Below are positions 895 through 54,471 of a DNA stretch of 64,000 nt, piece by piece. Under the pieces are notes generated by a model that made no database searches, was not told the origin of the DNA, and worked only from the letters and a program-made list of their open reading frames with translations. The translations under genes and the position numbers were made by a program. Each line of letters starts with the position of its first letter. Position 1 is the stretch's first letter. The stretch is from Sphyrna mokarran (Eukaryota): positions 9,052,001 to 9,116,000 of the forward strand of contig JAGIQG010000040.1 in assembly GCA_024679065.1 (NCBI GenBank), given 5' to 3'.

Positions 895-2547
895 ATTGCT
901 AGTGTCTCGGAGGGATGTGTAGACCTGTTAGAACAAATCACAATTATAAGAGAGAAAGTGTTAGATGTTTTAGCAATCGTTAACATAGACAAATCTACAG
1001 GGCAAGACGGCATTTGTCTTAGATTATGAGGGAGACAAGAGATGAAATTGCTGGGCTTCTAACAGAAATATTTGATTCTTCATTGAACACAGGTGGGATC
1101 CCAGGGGATTGGAAGATAGCAAATGTGGTCCCATTATTTAAGAAGGATAGCAAGGATAATTCAGGTAATTATACGCTGGTGAGTTTGATGTCTACGATAG
1201 AGAAATTTTGGAGGAGATTCTTAGGGATAGGATCTATACGTGTTTAGAACTGAATAGTGTCATTAGTGATACACAACATGATGTTGTACGAGGGAGGCCA
1301 TGCCTCACAAATTTGGTAGAGTTTTTTGAGGAGATGACAAAAAAGATTGAAGAGGGAAGGGCCATGTATATCGACTACATGATTTGAAGCAAATAATTGG
1401 ATAAGGTTCCTCATTCCTGATGCAAAAGATTGAATCTCATGGGATCAAAGCTGAACGAACAAGATGGATACAGAACTGGTTTGGCCATAAACCCAGAGGG
1501 TAGCAGTGGAGGTATCATTTTCTGGTTGAAGTTTGGTGATTAGCGTTGTTGTACAGGGCTCTGTACTGAGGCTTCTGCTGTTTGTGATACGATTTAGAAG
1601 AAGATGTAGCTGTTCTGATTTGTAAGTTTGGATGACACAAAGATTGCTGGAGTTGTGGATAGTGATAAACATTGTCAGAGATAGACATATCTTTGAAATG
1701 TTCATCACTATCCGCATCATATGCAGAATATAGATATGCTGGAAAATTGGGCGGAGAAGTGGCAGATGGAATTTAATCCAGAAGAATGAGAAGTAGTGTA
1801 CTTTTGCAGATTTAATGAAGGGGAGCTATACAATAAATGGCAGAACCATCAGGAGTAAAGGGACGCAGAGGGATCTGAGTGTGCAAACTCGCAGATCCTT
1901 AAAGGTGGCAACACAGCTGGAAAAGGCAGTGAAGAAGGCATATGGCATGCTTGTCTTATTGGATGGGACATAAAGTATAAAAGTAAGCATACAATGTTGC
2001 AATATATAGAACATTTGGAATACTGCGTCCCGTTCTGGTCGGCACATGAACAGAAAGTCGTGGAAGCTTCGGAGAGAGTTCAGAAAAGGTTATCCAGGAT
2101 GTTGCCTGGTATGTAGGGCCTTTGTTATGAGGTGAGATTCAGTAAGTTAGGTTGTTCTCCCTGGAAAGAGGGATGTTGAAGGGTGACATAGTAGAAGTTT
2201 ATAAAATTATGAAGAACATAGATAGGGTGAACAGTTGAAAGCTTTTTCCCCAGATGGAAATGACAGACACAAGGGGTCACAAGTTCAAGGTAAGGGGGGG
2301 GCGTGGTTCGATACAAATATACATATTTTACACAGAGGGTGAAGGGGCCTGGAATGCATTACCATGAAAAGTGGTTGAGGCAGACACGCTAGGATTATTT
2401 AAGACTTATCCAAGACTTAGGGATAGCCACATGAACAGACTAGAGATCGAGGGATACAAACAGATAGTCTAGTTAGGAACACATGATGTGTGCAGGCTCG
2501 GAGGGCTGAAGGGCCTGCTCCTGTGCTGTATTGTTATTTGTTCTTTG
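895..2547 (+). mobile_element. Degenerate CR1 LINE in Cmu2-Cmu3 intron
   Basis: DWKIANVVPLFKK..NY..VSL RT motifs with stops and frameshifts; 3' end gaagggcctgctcctgtgctgtattgtt. Confidence 0.9.
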
Positions 2548-24216: not shown

Positions 24217-25133
24217 AAGAACAACAAAGAACAAAGAACAACACAGCACGGGAAACAGGCCCTTCGGCCCAACGAGCCCGCGCCGCCATCCTAACGTCTT
24301 AATGACATATAGAGACCAATATAGGGACAATTTGTTACCAATCAGCCTAAGAGCACATTTTTGGGATGTGGGAGGAAACCGGAGCACCCGGAGAAAACCC
24401 ACGCAACCATGGGGAGAACGCGCAAACTCCCGCAGACACAGGCCCAAATCCACGTGTCTGCACAGCAACAGCGATAGTCTCTGAGCTGTAATGTTGCCCA
24501 TCTGATGGTCCAGTTTAAGCATACACTAACGACATGAAGCACTAGGCCACTCCTGAAGTAACATCCAGGAGCGGCCCTCACACGACCTGCCGAATGCCTG
24601 CACCTTGTTGGTCAACAAGGTGGACCGAACAGCCTGTGGAAACAATTAAAGTATTTAAACAGTCCTCCTATATCCCTCTATCTGCAGACCGCTCATGTGG
24701 CTGTCCAAGAGACCCTTAAACAATCCTAGCGTGCCTGCTCCCACCACCTTACTCAGTAGTGCATTCCACACCCCCACTACCCTTTGTGTGAAAAAATGCC
24801 CTCTAATATTAGTCTTATACATAGCCCCCTCACCCTAAGGCCGTGACCCCTCGTTCTATCAGAATCTAATGGTGGAAAAAGCTTACCACCATTTACTCTA
24901 TCTATACCCCTCATAATCTTATATACCTCTAATAGATCCCCTCTCAGCCGACGTCTTTCACGGGAAAACAACCTCAGTGCGTTCAACCTTTCCTCGTAAG
25001 ACAGCCCTTCCATACCAGGCAGCATCCTGGTAAATCTCCTCTGCACTCTCTCCAGGGACTCCATATCCTTGCGTAGTACGGCGACCAGAACTGGACGCAG
25101 TACTCCAAGTGAGGCCTAACCAACATTCTATAC
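24217..25133 (-). mobile_element. CR1 fragment with long structured 3' UTR containing a V-domain
   Basis: [22 protein letters not shown]-terminus, then ~440 nt 3' UTR; tail (ttgttct)n; paralogue at 53457-54471. Confidence 0.9.
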
Positions 25134-48147: not shown

Positions 48148-50441
48148 TTTTATCGGAGACTTTGAGCACGCACAGTCTGACAATAAATGTTGTAACATTT
48201 ATACATAATGTGAGGCTCCAGGGAAATAATTAGTTTTTTATATTATTAATTTTATTGTGAAAAACAAATTAGTGCAGCTGCTACCCAGCTGTCTTTTATG
48301 TGTGATCGAATATAATGTTTTTTTCAATGAGTTCTCAAATCTCCTTGATCGAAATACCCAGAGACTAAGGCATAATCTAGTTTGCCTGGACATTCGTTTC
48401 ATTACAGAACATAGCTACAGAACATTAAGAAATGCAAATAGTCCGTGGAAAACTGAACAGAAATGTTCAAAATCACGACCAAATGATAGGATGAAATTTA
48501 GTTCTAAAGATCTCTCATTGAGTCAACTCACTTCCAGCCATCTATTAGTGCCCATGGGAAGGACGCTTAACTAGGCTACGTTAAGAGTTGCCTTTCTTCA
48601 CGACTATGTCAATTTTTTGCCAGGACATTTCAATTACATCAAATTGGCCAAGCTTAGTTTCCAGTCCATCCCAGTTACTTTCAGGCCGAACGTCCCCAGC
48701 TCTGCACTGGTACATTGGGTATTGGGGTACTCTGCTCAATATCTGTACTGGAGTATAAACAGTTCCAGTCCAACCTGGTTACAGTCGGCCCAAACTGGCT
48801 TGTGTCTATTCAATGTCGATCAGATTCATCCCAGGAAATTCTCACGTGTTCGAGAGATCTACTTCACAAGGCTCCACTGAGTATTGTCAGGTCAAATTCG
48901 CTGTGGTTATATTCACTACTGACATCATAAATCACTTAATTCTGGCAAACGCATCTATATTTTCAGTTGACAATATCTATTTGAAAGTGATTATTTTTTT
49001 GCTGGAGGAAAGTCCAACAAAGGTACTGCCATAATGGACGTGGCAACTTCGTTGAACTAATGGAACCAACGTTTGGAGTCTGAGCTAAGATCCGAGGAAG
49101 GGTCTCCCTGATCGATGAATATTCATTTCAACTAAAACGAGATATATTAGATCATGCTGTTGTAAATTTCCAACCTATTAGTAATATGGGATTCACAGTA
49201 ACTGATAGAAATTGATGTAGTTGTGGATATAGAACTGGAACGCACCATCACATGGTGTGAATCCACTGTCTATTTAAATGGTGATCAGTGAAAATTTCAA
49301 TCATCCTCCACTGTATAACACACGGCCACTGAGTGAAGAAGCAATGGCCAGTCAAAAAAGCCTGTATCAGTCAATTTTTCTCACAACTTTCAGACATGTT
49401 GCCATTCACTGTTTTTTTTATTGACGCATTGACGGGGGCGGCAGGGGAGGGGGGGAGTTCGCTTTTGACGCCGAGCACATATTCGCATCTCGTTCAGTCT
49501 ACAACAGAATTTAGTGGGTTTATAGGTGCAGATTAATATGGTTAATCACCATCTGAAATATCTGATAGTAGCCTGTTCTCAAAAAGACAGATACAGGTGA
49601 TACTGTAAGTGAAAAAGAGGAAATGGCGTTGATTTCACAGCAGAATATTTTTTTAAATCGTTTTTCATCACTCGAAACAGAAAAAAAAAGCCACTCAGAC
49701 AGATGAGCGAATCGAGATTCAGTGCGGATCTACTGAACGTTCGTGAAACGGGGCAGAATTTATGCTCCTGAATGTTTCACACCCATAATAAAAAAGGCTC
49801 AAGGGGCACTATCAGATAATTCTGGATTTTCCTCCATTTAAATGGAGTTGACTTTGTTTAAAAGCTGACGATAATCAATCTCAAAACTGTGACCTGTATT
49901 ACCCGATGATCCAATTCGTTCTGTTGGTCAGTTATTTTTTCAATTCATTGATGTTCAATTTCACGGGTATTCAATTCATAATGAAGCCATATATGTTAAA
50001 TAATGCATTAATACTAAATTTTGAAGCAAATTCTGAGTACAATTGTATAATGAGCTTTCATAAAGAGTCATCTGGAATCGAAACGTCCGCCCCTTTCACT
50101 CGTTACAGGTGCTGTTAAACACTGTGAGATTTTGCAGCATTTTCTCTTATCCCATGGGCGCTAATTTGCTTTTATTACTAAATACAGTTGATTGAGATTA
50201 TTCGAAGAAAGATGAAAATGGTGCATTAATAAATGGGCAGAAATCGTTCTTCCTTAGATACTTGCAGCACGAACTTCTTAAGATTTTGATATTTGGGATG
50301 AGTCATACAATAAGATTGAAAGCCACAGTTATTTTCCCAAACTATGTGACACGGGTTCTCAATCTCACCATTCGAACCTGCAGCAACACAGCATAGTTGA
50401 ACACTGCAGACAGGCACTTTTGCTCCACTGCTCTTTACGTT

Positions 50442-50514
50442 GTTTCTGTAGTGTAGCGGTTATCACGTTCGCCTAACACGTGAAAAGTCCCCGGATCGAA
50501 ACTGGGTAAAAGCA
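50442..50514 (+). tRNA. tRNA-Val(AAC), probably pseudogenised
   Basis: GTTTCTGTAGTGTAGCGGTTATCACGTTCGCCTAACACGTGAAAAGTCCCCGGATCGAAACTGGGTAAAAGCA; T54>A in T-loop, C-A mismatch in acceptor stem; TTTT at 50524. Confidence 0.8.
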
Positions 50515-51304
50515 TTCATGTAGTTTTCTTATAGGGGAAATGGCGCACATTTCACAAAATAATCACGCCCAAAATAAACATTTAAAAAAGACTCAAGTGT
50601 GAAGAACAGATAATTCTTGATTCTCCTCCTTTTAAATGTAGTTGACTTTGTGTAAAAGCTGACGATAATCAAATTCAAAATTGCCATCAGTATTAACCGG
50701 TGATTCAATTCATTCTGTTGGTCAGTTATGTTTTCAATTCAGTGATCCTCAATGTCCCTTGCAAGATATTTGCTTCTGTTTAAAAACTGACTGTAGTCAA
50801 TATCAAAAAAGGTATCACGGGGTGTGTATTTCCCAGTGGCTCGCTTTCTTTTATTACTCAGTCATGCTTATAATTCATTGTTGTCTATTTCCGAGATATT
50901 CAGTTCAGAATGAGGACATTGGTGTTAAATAAATGTATTGATTTAAAGGTTGAATCAAAAGGACTAGGAATGTGCAATGTGATTGGATGGGATTTTTATT
51001 CTCCGCCCATTTTCCTATCGGTAGTCACTTTGTATAAAAAGAGGCCATGATGTTCGGTAAGTGATCAGAGAGCGTCCTCCCGTGGACAGTACAGCAGCAT
51101 TGGAACAGACGCCGAGTCAAGACCCGAGGTAACTGCATTCAGATACACATCCAATGGAACCACAACTCTAGACAGGAGGAAACTTCCGCTGAACATCCAC
51201 ACTGTTAGCACTGCTTAGTGTTTTGAAGGATTCAGGCAATTAAGTCTCCTCACTCTTCTGAACTTTCCTGAGTAGAAACCTGACGTCACCAACCTTTTCT
51301 CATA

Positions 51305-52810
51305 TAGAACATAGAACATTACAGCGCAGTACAGGCCCTTCGGCCCTCGATGTTGCGCCGGCCAGTGGACCCTCTAACCTAAACTATTCAAATATCATCC
51401 ATATGCCTATCCACCGAACATTTGAATGCCCCCAAAGTAGGCGAGTCCACAACTGCTGCAGGCAGGGCATTCCACGCCCTCACCACCCTCTGGGTGAAGA
51501 ACCTGCCTCTGACATCCGTCCTATAACTACCACCTCTTAATTTAAAGTTATGTCCCCTCGTGTTGGTCATCACCATCCGAGGAAAACGGCTCTCACTATC
51601 CACCCTATCCAGTCCTTCGATCATCTTATATGCCTCAATTAGGTCACCGCGTAACCTTCTTCTCTCTAATGAAAATAACCTCAGGTCCCTCAGCCTTTCC
51701 TCATAAAGCCTTCCCACCATACCAGGCAACATCCTGGTAAACCTCCTCTGCACCCTTTCCGATGCTTCCACATCTTTCTTATAATGCGGCGACCAGAACT
51801 GTACGCAATACTCCAAGTGCGGCCGCACCAGAGTTTTGTACAGTTGTAACATAACATCACGGCTCCTAAATTCAATCCCTCTACCAATAAAAGCTAACAC
51901 ACCGTACGCCTTCTTAACAACTTTATCAACCTGGGTGCCAACTTTCAAAGAGCTATGTACTTGTACCCCAAGATCCCTCTGATCGACAACACTATTAAGG
52001 GTCCTTCCATTAGCCCTATATTTCATATGCCTGTTATTCCTACCAAAGTGAATCACCTCACACTTATCCGTATTGAATTCCATTTGCCACCTCACGGCCC
52101 AGCTCTGCAACCTATCTATGTACCTCTGCAAACTGTAACATCCATCCTCGCTGTCTACAACTCCCCCCACTTTGGTATCATCAGCAAATTTACTAATCCA
52201 ACCCTCTACACCCTCATCTAGGTCATTTATAAAAATGACAAGCAGCAGTGGCCCTAAAACAGATCCTTGAGGTACACCACTTGTAACTGCACTCCAGGTT
52301 GAATATTTCCCATCAACCACCACCATCTGTCTTCTATCAGCTAGCCAATTCCTAATCCAAACTGCTAAATCACCTTCAATCCCATGCATCTGCACTTTCT
52401 GCAGTAGCCTACCATGGGGAACCTTATCAAACGCTTTGCTAAAATCCATATACACAACATCAACTGCCTTACCCTTATCTACCTCTTTGGTCACCTCCTC
52501 AAAAAACTCAATAAGGTTTGTGAGGCATGACCTACCCTTCACAAAACCGTGCTGACTATCCCTAATCAATTTATTTCTCTCTAGATGCTTATAAATCCTG
52601 TCCCTTATAATTCTTTCCAAGACTTTGCCCACAACAGAAGTCAGGCTCATAGGTCTATAATTTCCAGGATGGTCCCTACTCCCCTTTTTGAACAAAGGGA
52701 CAACATTTGCCATCCTCCAGTCTTCCGGCACTATACCTGTAGCCAACGACGACATGAAGATCAAAGCCAAAGGCTCTGCAATCTCCTCTCTAGCCTCCCA
52801 GAGAATCCTA
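51305..52810 (-). mobile_element. Young 5'-truncated CR1 with uninterrupted 460-aa RT/C-terminal ORF (51388-52770)
   Basis: DWRMANVVPLFKKG, QHGF, DFSKAFD, GVPQGSVLGP, FADD; no endonuclease domain; (tagaaca)n tail. Confidence 0.96.
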
Positions 52811-53456
52811 CTCGCTCATAGCTGGCAATAGTTTAGTGAACCCTCTCTGAACTTTTTTTCAAACGCATTAACTTTTTTTTAAGGTAAGTGAACAAATAGT
52901 GTGACAATATTCCAGATATGCTCAATGCCCTCGCCAATGCCCAAATTTCCAATCTATCGTTGCATCTTCAACACGATTAGTACTTGTATCTTCACTCTCT
53001 TCCTCACGGCAGAAACCATCCCACTGATATTTTTTGACAACTTCAGCCGGAATGTATTTAGTCAGGTCAAATCGAGTTTAATTAACTTGTGTGACAGAAA
53101 TTGTTTGTGAAGATATTTCTTTTAATGGGCGTCCAAAAGTCGTGTGATACGGTGCTGCACCACAGTCGTGTGCGTAACTGGGGAGATCAGAGAATAAAAT
53201 GGACAGGAACAACATGGATAGGGAATTGTCTGAGTTCCAGGAAACAATTCGTATCTATTTTTCGACTGGAACAAAGCTTGCAGTCATGTTGCCAGGAATA
53301 TGTTATATGAACCTTGATCTTCATGACATAGAAATGACCGAGAACTTCATATGGAGGCCAGACTTTCAAAATCCATGAATGATACAAAACTTGGAAACAT
53401 GACACCCATCAATACATCATGCAGAACTTCAGAACGCAAAAAAAAAGAACTAATTG

Positions 53457-54471
53457 TATAAAGTAGTTGTATAAAACGCTGGTTAGACCTCATTTGGAAT
53501 ACTGCGTCCAGTTCTGGTTGCCTTACTACCGGAAAGACGTGGAGACTCTAGAGAGAGTGCAGAGGAGGTTTACCAGGATGCTGCCTGGTATGGAAGGTCT
53601 GAGTTACGAGGAGAGATTAGGCAAATTGGGACTGTTTTCCTTAGAAAGACGTAGACTTAGAGGAGATCTGATAGAGGTGTACAATATTTTGAAGGGGATT
53701 GATAGATTAAACAGGGTTAAGCTTTTTCCTAGGATGGACTCAAATAGCACGAGGGGTCACAGGCTTAGGGTGAGGGGCGTAAGGTATAATTTGGATGCTA
53801 GAGGGAGTTTTTTCACACAGAGGGTGGTGGGGGTATGGAATGCACTGCAAAGTAAAGTGGTGGAGGCAGGTACTCTGGAGTTATTTAAGAAATACTTAGA
53901 TGGGCACATGAACAGAATGGGAATAGAGGGGTATAGAAAACTGATTTAAAATAGGGATCATGAGCCTTGGGAGTCCCTGGGAAGTGTGTAAATAGATAAT
54001 GATGATATTGATATACTTGTTTTTATCCTACAGGTGCTTTGGTCCGCCTTGTTGTCTAACGAGGGGCATACACGCGATGGGTCGTGAGAGGACTGCTCTT
54101 GGATCTTTTTCGAGAGTATCCTACTGCTTCACGTTGTTAGCGTATGCTTGACCCGGACCTTCTGATGGGCAATACGACAGTCAGTGACTATCGCTGTGCT
54201 GTGCAGATACATGGATTTGGGCCTGTGTCTGTGGGAGTTTGCGCATTCTCCCCGTGCTTGCGTGGGTTTCCTCCCACATCCCAAAGATGTGCTCTTAGGC
54301 TAATTGGCAAAACACATTCTCCCTAAATTGTCTCAAATTTGGTTTTTAAATCCATAGATCGATAATCATGGACAGGGATCGCGGGTAGAGATAGGAACAT
54401 CAAGGTGGCGGTGCGGGCTCGTTCGGCCGAAGGGCCTGTTTCCCGTGCTGTTTTGTTCTTTGTTCTTTGTT
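53457..54471 (+). mobile_element. CR1 fragment with long structured 3' UTR containing a V-domain; 7-bp TSD
   Basis: ORF 53467-53949; TSD CTAATTG at 53450-53456 and 54472-54478; single-copy empty site at ~27415-27421. Confidence 0.93.

Follow-up and report, generated by a model that had tools for sequence, protein, structure and literature searches.

A structured RNA domain in the long 3' UTR of CR1 retrotransposons of Sphyrna mokarran and its probable origin from an R2 element

The window analyzed here, a 64,000-nt stretch of the Sphyrna mokarran assembly GCA_024679065.1 (contig JAGIQG010000040.1, positions 9,052,001 to 9,116,000), contains two diverged copies of a LINE, called copies A and B hereafter, in which the end of ORF2 is followed by a long 3' UTR (Table 1). 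An initial annotation, made from the letters of the window, had described in this UTR an RNA domain with covarying stems followed by a SINE V-domain. All the motifs it quoted are indeed found in place in both copies, including the closing stem of the domain (GGTCCG at 54041-46 with CGGACC at 54154-59 in copy A; GGTCCA at 24626-21 with TGGACC at 24512-07 in copy B) and the CAG/G that precedes it (54031-33/34 in copy A, 24636-34/33 in copy B). The long UTR itself, previously placed from 54015 onwards, starts at the ORF2 stop codon (53949).

Table 1. Features of copies A and B and of a related short-UTR element, in positions of the window.
Feature	Position	Strand	Remarks
Copy A, CR1 ORF2 3' fragment, 5'-truncated	53465..53949	+	stop codon TAA 53947-53949
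Copy A, putative R2 ORF C-terminal codon remnant, eroded	53956..53985	+	weak in copy A; clear in older lineages
Copy A, acceptor-like site from R2 UTR	54008..54034	+	TTGAT (candidate branch A at -23), CAG/G and its pyrimidine tract
Copy A, structured domain, three-way junction	54041..54159	+	folding, lineage alignment, simulation
Copy A, tRNA-derived V-SINE head, boxes A and B destroyed	54167..54232	+	refolded as two hairpins
Copy A, V-domain and short post-V SINE body	54225..54320	+	19 nt of the V-domain missing
Copy A, eroded rest of R2 3' UTR and terminus	54321..54406	+	alignment via D, old1, old2 and L332 to R2c
Copy A, CR1's own 3' tail	54407..54471	+	GGCCGAAGGGCC hairpin and (TTGTTCT)n repeat
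Copy B, CR1 ORF2 3' fragment (subfamily B)	24655..25133	-	
Copy B, shortened spacer, pyrimidine tract and CAG/G	24633..24654	-	R2 ORF remnant wholly deleted
Copy B, structured domain	24507..24626	-	
Copy B, SINE head, V-domain, short remnant, CR1 tail	24217..24499	-	
Related short-UTR CR1, same tail type	2012..2547	+	would model the state before R2 insertion

Both copies are members of multi-copy, variably 5'-truncated subfamilies, with truncation points that lie upstream of the domain, at distances ranging between 12 and at least 1500 nt. The full-length element of the family measures about 4.7 kb and codes for ORF1 and for an ORF2 with endonuclease and RT; ORF2 matches Exo_endo_phos and RVT_1 in Pfam, where the ORF1 fragment has no match. 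With an AP endonuclease and RT in ORF2, an ORF1, 5'-truncated copies and a short tandem-repeat tail, the element has the features of a LINE of the clade that we take to be CR1. Two exact motifs have 29,857 and 33,869 matches in the 2.77-Gb genome (12 and 0 for the respective controls), and DNA searches returned 2880 candidates for copy A and 857 for copy B; on these counts, the domain would be carried by CR1 in about 30,000 or more copies. Several truncated family-A copies start 2 nt before the junction and abut the tail repeat of another CR1, which suggests insertion at CR1 tails.

A diverged copy of the block formed by the acceptor-like site, the domain and the SINE part was found behind a different ORF, that of R2. 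The latter matches the R2 proteins of the PDB with an E of about 1e-174, vs. about 1e-29 for L1 ORF2, and it is a single ORF with zinc fingers and Myb (both weak domain matches), RT and a C-terminal endonuclease region. Full-length copies begin with a 28S leader, intact insertions at the 28S site were found, and a predicted HDV-like ribozyme fold was detected by descriptor at 22/30 R2 5' ends, a count that gives no independent sensitivity as the descriptor had been adjusted on these same ends. The element is not strictly specific for rDNA: by inspection, the flanks are non-rDNA at all 30 5' ends, and the assembly, in which rDNA arrays may be under-assembled, contains four exact 28S 3' junctions. 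Among 50 distinct R2 3' junctions, T, A and G were observed in 45, 40 and 36 cases, respectively. The 3' UTR, 830-870 nt long, holds an acceptor-like site, the 120-nt three-way junction and the promoter-dead front half of a V-SINE. R2 has been described in cartilaginous fishes (PMC12247875). The family comprises 506 candidate copies, hundreds of them outside rDNA, in at least five subfamilies (e.g., L322-L340, L345-L374 and L181:5920-L182:950). One full-length R2 (L323:1310-6501) occupies the canonical site in a short 28S fragment that itself lies within non-rDNA sequence. The R2 stop codon is located in a donor-like site, CAG/GTGAGA (e.g., L338), about 170-210 nt ahead of the acceptor-like one, and hairpins are found in the UTR downstream of the stop codon.

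To judge from the alignments, what is left in the long 3' UTR of CR1 is an eroded R2, a single 5'-truncated element that had inserted downstream of the CR1 stop codon, ahead of the CR1 tail. The end of the R2 ORF is present in 10 of 27 non-R2 loci, and its best blastn match in the spacers of older CR1 lineages reaches 80.6% identity over 108 nt (E 1.4e-23). At locus L332, the whole order can be followed: CR1 ORF2 stop, R2 ORF end, R2 UTR with the block, R2 terminus and CR1 tail. A single insertion suffices, because the two junctions coincide in the alignment of all CR1 lineages; the short-UTR CR1 of Table 1 resembles the empty state before insertion. Older lineages still hold the R2 ORF end and the R2 3' terminus; later ones lost the donor-like site, the ORF remnant and most of the terminus, and retained the acceptor, the domain and the SINE. 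The interpretation given in the initial annotation is upheld in part, the derivation of the whole block from R2 by one insertion having gone unseen at that stage. As the same alignments read, this is the passage of a new structured RNA element from R2 to CR1. Neither an R2 inserted into the UTR of a CR1 nor the domain itself was reported in the literature found by our search, with Repbase and Dfam outside its range, and the available parts of PMC5786205 and PMC13343379 contain nothing on either.

The V-domain is present, as announced, but it is not the whole SINE part: from about 54167 onwards, the tRNA-derived head, the V-domain and the first post-V bases of the free V-SINE (consensus of 12 local copies from 564 kb) can all be aligned with the UTR. 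The hairpin formed by GCAGAUAC and GUGUCUGU is, therefore, a remodeled SINE head. Box A and B patterns for Pol III are present in the free SINE and in 0/13 of the module consensuses; the UTR has the tRNA head and V-domain of a V-SINE without its intact boxes and independent mobility. The LINE had been considered either to have supplied the V-SINE body, as a source, or to have received it, as a sink; of these two roles, this loss of boxes A and B in all 13 modules retains the sink and removes the source. R2 is a sink as well as CR1, since its own UTR holds the same promoter-dead front half. An 18-19-nt segment of the head is retained in older lineages and deleted in A, B and C. An identical 19-nt deletion of the V-domain, between short direct repeats, is observed in copy A (window 54260) and, separately, in R2b (L291, L294).

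The domain folds as a three-way junction of 120 nt and 46 pairs. In copy A, the closing stem encloses a short hairpin (54047-64) and a long imperfect stem (about 54066-54147) capped by a hairpin at 54089-54122. Folding of the first 137 nt of single copies gives z scores of -2.3 (copy A) and -3.5 (copy B). No covariance model of Rfam 15 matches over the domain, in line with the initial annotation, which had recognized no known family; a metagenome pattern scan returned four matches, confined to the 21-mer, with flanks unlike ours. Pairing of the first 17 nt with the CR1 tail is possible, at -20 to -25 kcal/mol for CR1 lineages and at -15 to -18 for R2, in a duplex that receives probabilities of 0.00 and 0.32 when whole UTRs are folded. 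Two ideas were discarded along the way: an antisense CR1 tail as the origin of these 17 nt, as the segment derives from R2, which lacks a CR1 tail, and a pseudoknot of GUCGUG with CACGAC seen in copies A and B, the strands of which differ in R2 lineages. In old CR1 lineages (L312, L314, L332), the candidate branch region AUUGAUGU has its complement in one strand of the long stem, and an alternative pairing of the two, spotted by eye, is possible.

Selection on RNA structure had been argued from paired swaps in several stems, among them a G-C to A-U swap in the closing stem. This particular swap does not carry the argument: G-C is private to copy A, being found in no other of the 93 family-A copies scored, 87 of which have A-U. 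Genuine two-sided changes occur at other positions, and the claim itself is now backed by tree-aware simulation. We clustered 305 distinct near-complete modules, 225 of which were grouped into 13 lineages, 8 of CR1 and 5 of R2 (including the small groups R2e, R2b and D, with n=1, 2 and 3); the other 80, singletons or unassigned, were excluded. In a null model of our own, with kappa fixed at 3, no indels and no CpG effect, a living lineage was taken through the tree under neutral evolution until it was as diverged as the real ones. Across the 13 lineages, 95.3% of stem cells are paired vs. 74-79% in simulations (0/500 in each of six set-ups), 11 pairs show two-sided change vs. about 5 (2-9/500), and the alifold energy, refolded for each simulation, is -48.2 vs. 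about -9 (0/60). With one real copy per lineage, two-sided change is seen in 15/63 pairs, and slid controls pair at 33-45%. In CR1 alone, pairing reaches 97% vs. 80-85% (0/500) and the alifold energy -42.4 vs. -22 (0/100), with a modest excess of two-sided pairs (5 vs. 1.6-1.7; 10-16/500). In R2 alone, pairing is 95% vs. 85-87% (0-1/500), and the single two-sided pair is no excess over simulation. The SINE-head hairpin lies weakly above the null (15-49/500). Selection on the pairing of the domain is, thus, supported, in CR1 too.

One could argue that the block is a mere passenger in CR1, its similarity resulting from recombination among lineages and from selection acting in R2 only. Mosaic lineages do exist, and the domain of lineage D is 96-98% identical to that of A. 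Between copies A and B, identity rises from 53-60% at 40 fourfold sites to 80-82% in the domain and 94-95% in the head and V-domain, a contrast to which recombination between CR1 lineages may add by inflating UTR identity. Moreover, CR1 can do without the block: in 564 kb, 87 CR1 tails are of the short-UTR type vs. 34 of the module type (55 other), so that the module is not needed by CR1. Nevertheless, changes that arose within CR1 keep the pairing (69% of variant cells canonical vs. 34-35%; 0/500), and neighboring R2 pieces were deleted in CR1 while the block stayed, which makes a passenger improbable.

Another reading holds that the domain cleaves or processes itself, as an RNA of a class not yet described or as the decayed copy of an HDV-like one. 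A compact selected fold within a retroelement invites this thought, the base of the short hairpin (CCUUG with CAAGG) is common to P4 of the R2 5' ribozyme, and an invariant CUUCA resembles an HDV loop. All the same, the descriptor that recognizes R2 5' ends found an HDV-like fold in 0/150 shuffles, 0/13 module lineages and 0/6 whole UTRs; the domain does not show the nested double pseudoknot, L3 motif and catalytic C in J4/2 of HDV, none of the 13 consensuses has a hammerhead core (CUGANGA and GAAA), and Rfam offers no match. Homology to the R2 5' ribozyme, also considered, is non-significant (nhmmer E 0.6 or worse; best shuffle test 31/1000 among 13 tests). The 5' ends of 31 copies in 564 kb are all different, 27 of these copies reaching across the domain and 4 breaking off within it; a start shared by two subfamily-C copies, which could have marked a cleavage-defined end, disappeared once 30 more copies were added. 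A cut at the domain would, furthermore, part the ORF from its tail. The ribozyme proposed in the initial annotation is, on these grounds, very unlikely.

Protein-less R2 derivatives, called hitchhikers hereafter, offer a natural comparison. In the best 30 of 496 candidate loci for one query, the domain has no match (0/30), the SINE head and V-domain are present in 30/30, the R2 end in 26/30, and the leader was detected in 15/30. As the hitchhikers nest within the R2 clade, with R2b, R2e and CR1 outside (support 88-94), this absence is a loss; it goes back to one deletion event and could be a tolerated accident. By contrast, every protein-coding carrier sampled retains the domain. The acceptor reads AAG in 15/29 hitchhikers, TAG in 8/29 and CAG in 6/29, whereas all 13 coding lineages have CAG/G. 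In these hitchhikers (L385, L386, L389-L418), the domain is cleanly deleted between the two strands of the closing stem, and L386 lies in 28S sequence. From the 30 of 30 loci without it, we consider the domain dispensable for copying in trans and, hence, likely to serve the mRNA in cis.

The same data bear on the earlier suggestion of an RT-recognition element, according to which the domain is part of the RNA recognized by the reverse transcriptase in retrotransposition. Its position in the 3' UTR would suit this role, as R2 proteins read 3' UTR structure (PMC12180492). However, vertebrate A-clade R2 proteins work with the terminal 68-112 nt (PMC12180492), which are eroded in CR1; short-UTR CR1s copy without the domain, hitchhikers propagate without it, and elements using two unrelated enzymes retain the same fold. 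We regard such a handle as highly improbable.

The pyrimidine tract and CAG/G noticed in copies A and B are conserved well beyond them: CAG/G is invariant in the 13 lineage consensuses, vs. 4 invariant columns among the 27 upstream of it, two of which are the U and A of the branch-like motif. The site has 9-12 pyrimidines of 14, with YTRAY at -20 to -24 in 9/13 lineages. The 5' UTR of a full-length CR1 (L062:4075-4340) also contains a long pyrimidine tract with an AG end. The acceptor could be truly spliced, either to remove an intron at the R2 stop codon or to trap host transcripts, with the domain regulating the choice. The R2 donor-like CAG/GTGAGA at the stop, a TACTAAC 22 nt before CAG/G in two R2 lineages, and a CR1 copy (L235) in which ORF2 GAG/GTG is joined to the acceptor all speak for it. 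Yet none of the 100 R2 genomic copies listed (of 101) is spliced, the donor is deleted in most CR1 lineages, and L235 is the one internal join in 31 family-A copies chosen and inspected among the 153 passing a filter for breaks near the acceptor, its 5-nt microhomology being explanation enough. In R2, AGGUG can alternatively pair with an upstream CACCU. Spliced retrocopies were thus dropped, as the CR1 and R2 genomic copies inspected contain no class of recurrent spliced form, and we find true splicing improbable.

The reading that we prefer, with a probability of about one half, is that of a UTR left by a single R2, the selected junction fold of which would act in cis on the mRNA of coding elements and not as a ribozyme or RT handle. 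We infer the mechanism from the pattern of presence and absence. The domain would assist processing, export or translation of the mRNA where an element codes for protein; a protein encoded by the host or by the element would bind the three-way junction, and the acceptor-like site would recruit early 3'-splice-site factors with no intron being removed. Junction and acceptor together would raise the yield of translatable full-length RNA in elements that are intronless and end without a poly(A) tail. Export and translation elements of 3' UTRs, CTE-like or 3' CITE-like, are defined by the binding of export or initiation factors and by reporter activity. One has to keep in mind that 3'-end formation can be coupled to a terminal acceptor even if no intron is excised, although the coupling described concerns a poly(A) signal (PMC3737548), and that translation of R2 RNA presumably proceeds on uncapped molecules (PMC12203849).

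A bolder formulation, which we put forward as tentative, is that of a portable, hitherto undescribed 3' UTR element, made of an unspliced acceptor, a three-way junction and a domesticated V-SINE, that would boost the expression of intronless, non-polyadenylated retrotransposon mRNAs; it would work in two unrelated LINE clades whose transcription relies on different polymerases and would have passed from R2 to CR1 by one insertion. Alternatively, the fold may be selected as a folding insulator or stability element, which would ensure proper folding of the SINE and tail or shield the RNA from decay or silencing, and would serve neither export nor translation specifically. The better conservation of pairing than of loop sequence fits this idea, as does the capacity of unspliced intron sequence to protect against HUSH (PMC8770142); but short introns give little or no protection according to the same source, and hitchhikers retain the SINE and 3' end without the domain. 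We judge such an insulator unlikely, bearing in mind that these rival readings do not fully exclude each other.

Several known systems come close to this arrangement. With the HE1 V-SINE and HER1 CR1-type LINE of sharks and rays (PMC3747384), there is agreement in the tRNA head and V-domain, which can be aligned to the local free SINE, and in the CR1 tail type; here, unlike there, the front half of the SINE is a promoter-dead part of a LINE 3' UTR, placed behind an unrelated structured domain. The closest protein matches are vertebrate A-clade R2s of the zebra finch and big-headed turtle (PMC12180492; PDB 9nl2, 9nl3, 9dou), which likewise have a 28S leader, an HDV-like 5' ribozyme (predicted here) and the 28S insertion site. 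Their 3' UTRs measure 210-292 nt (PMC12180492), vs. 830-870 nt with domain and SINE here, where, in addition, most copies lie outside rDNA and the 3' end was taken over by a CR1. Drosophila has R2 SIDEs and R2/R1 hybrid SIDEs (PMC3414825), which are also protein-less R2 derivatives, with R2 joined to the 3' end of another LINE; the hybrids there are non-autonomous and use the R2 5' ribozyme, whereas here a protein-coding CR1 retains an internal piece of R2 3' UTR. The MITE MER6/MER6A with its V-SINE (PMC6887750) similarly spread a V-domain as the passenger of another transposon, in that case a DNA transposon with a headless SINE, for which the available part of the report describes neither a structured RNA domain nor selection on a fold. 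Finally, non-specific R2 of flatworms (PMC5035012) is found outside rDNA as it is here, but the vertebrate R2 of this study has retained insertions in 28S, and its 3' junction shows a bias to TAG.

The interest of the system would lie in a traceable LINE-to-LINE domestication of a regulatory RNA, from SINE to R2, then to CR1 and to tens of thousands of copies. The genome holds natural controls that separate the new fold from the V-domain: some CR1s lack the block, other CR1s and R2 possess it, and in the protein-less R2 derivatives the SINE is present but the domain is not. Conservation of the V-domain was left unexplained in PMC5786205 and PMC6887750, as far as their available parts go, and how uncapped R2 RNA is translated after ribozyme cleavage is an open question in PMC12203849. 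As R2 UTRs are under engineering for gene insertion, a portable element, if true, might be used as a new 3' module in such R2-based insertions and might allow the function of the V-domain to be assayed directly.

Two local observations complete the description of the window. Copy A (window 52500-54471) lies in a local segmental duplication: two further copies on the same contig (L002, L003) match it over at least 1.5 kb upstream at 97-99%. At 50441-50515, ARAGORN predicts a tRNA-Val(AAC)-like gene, below the Rfam threshold, which is probably a pseudogene.
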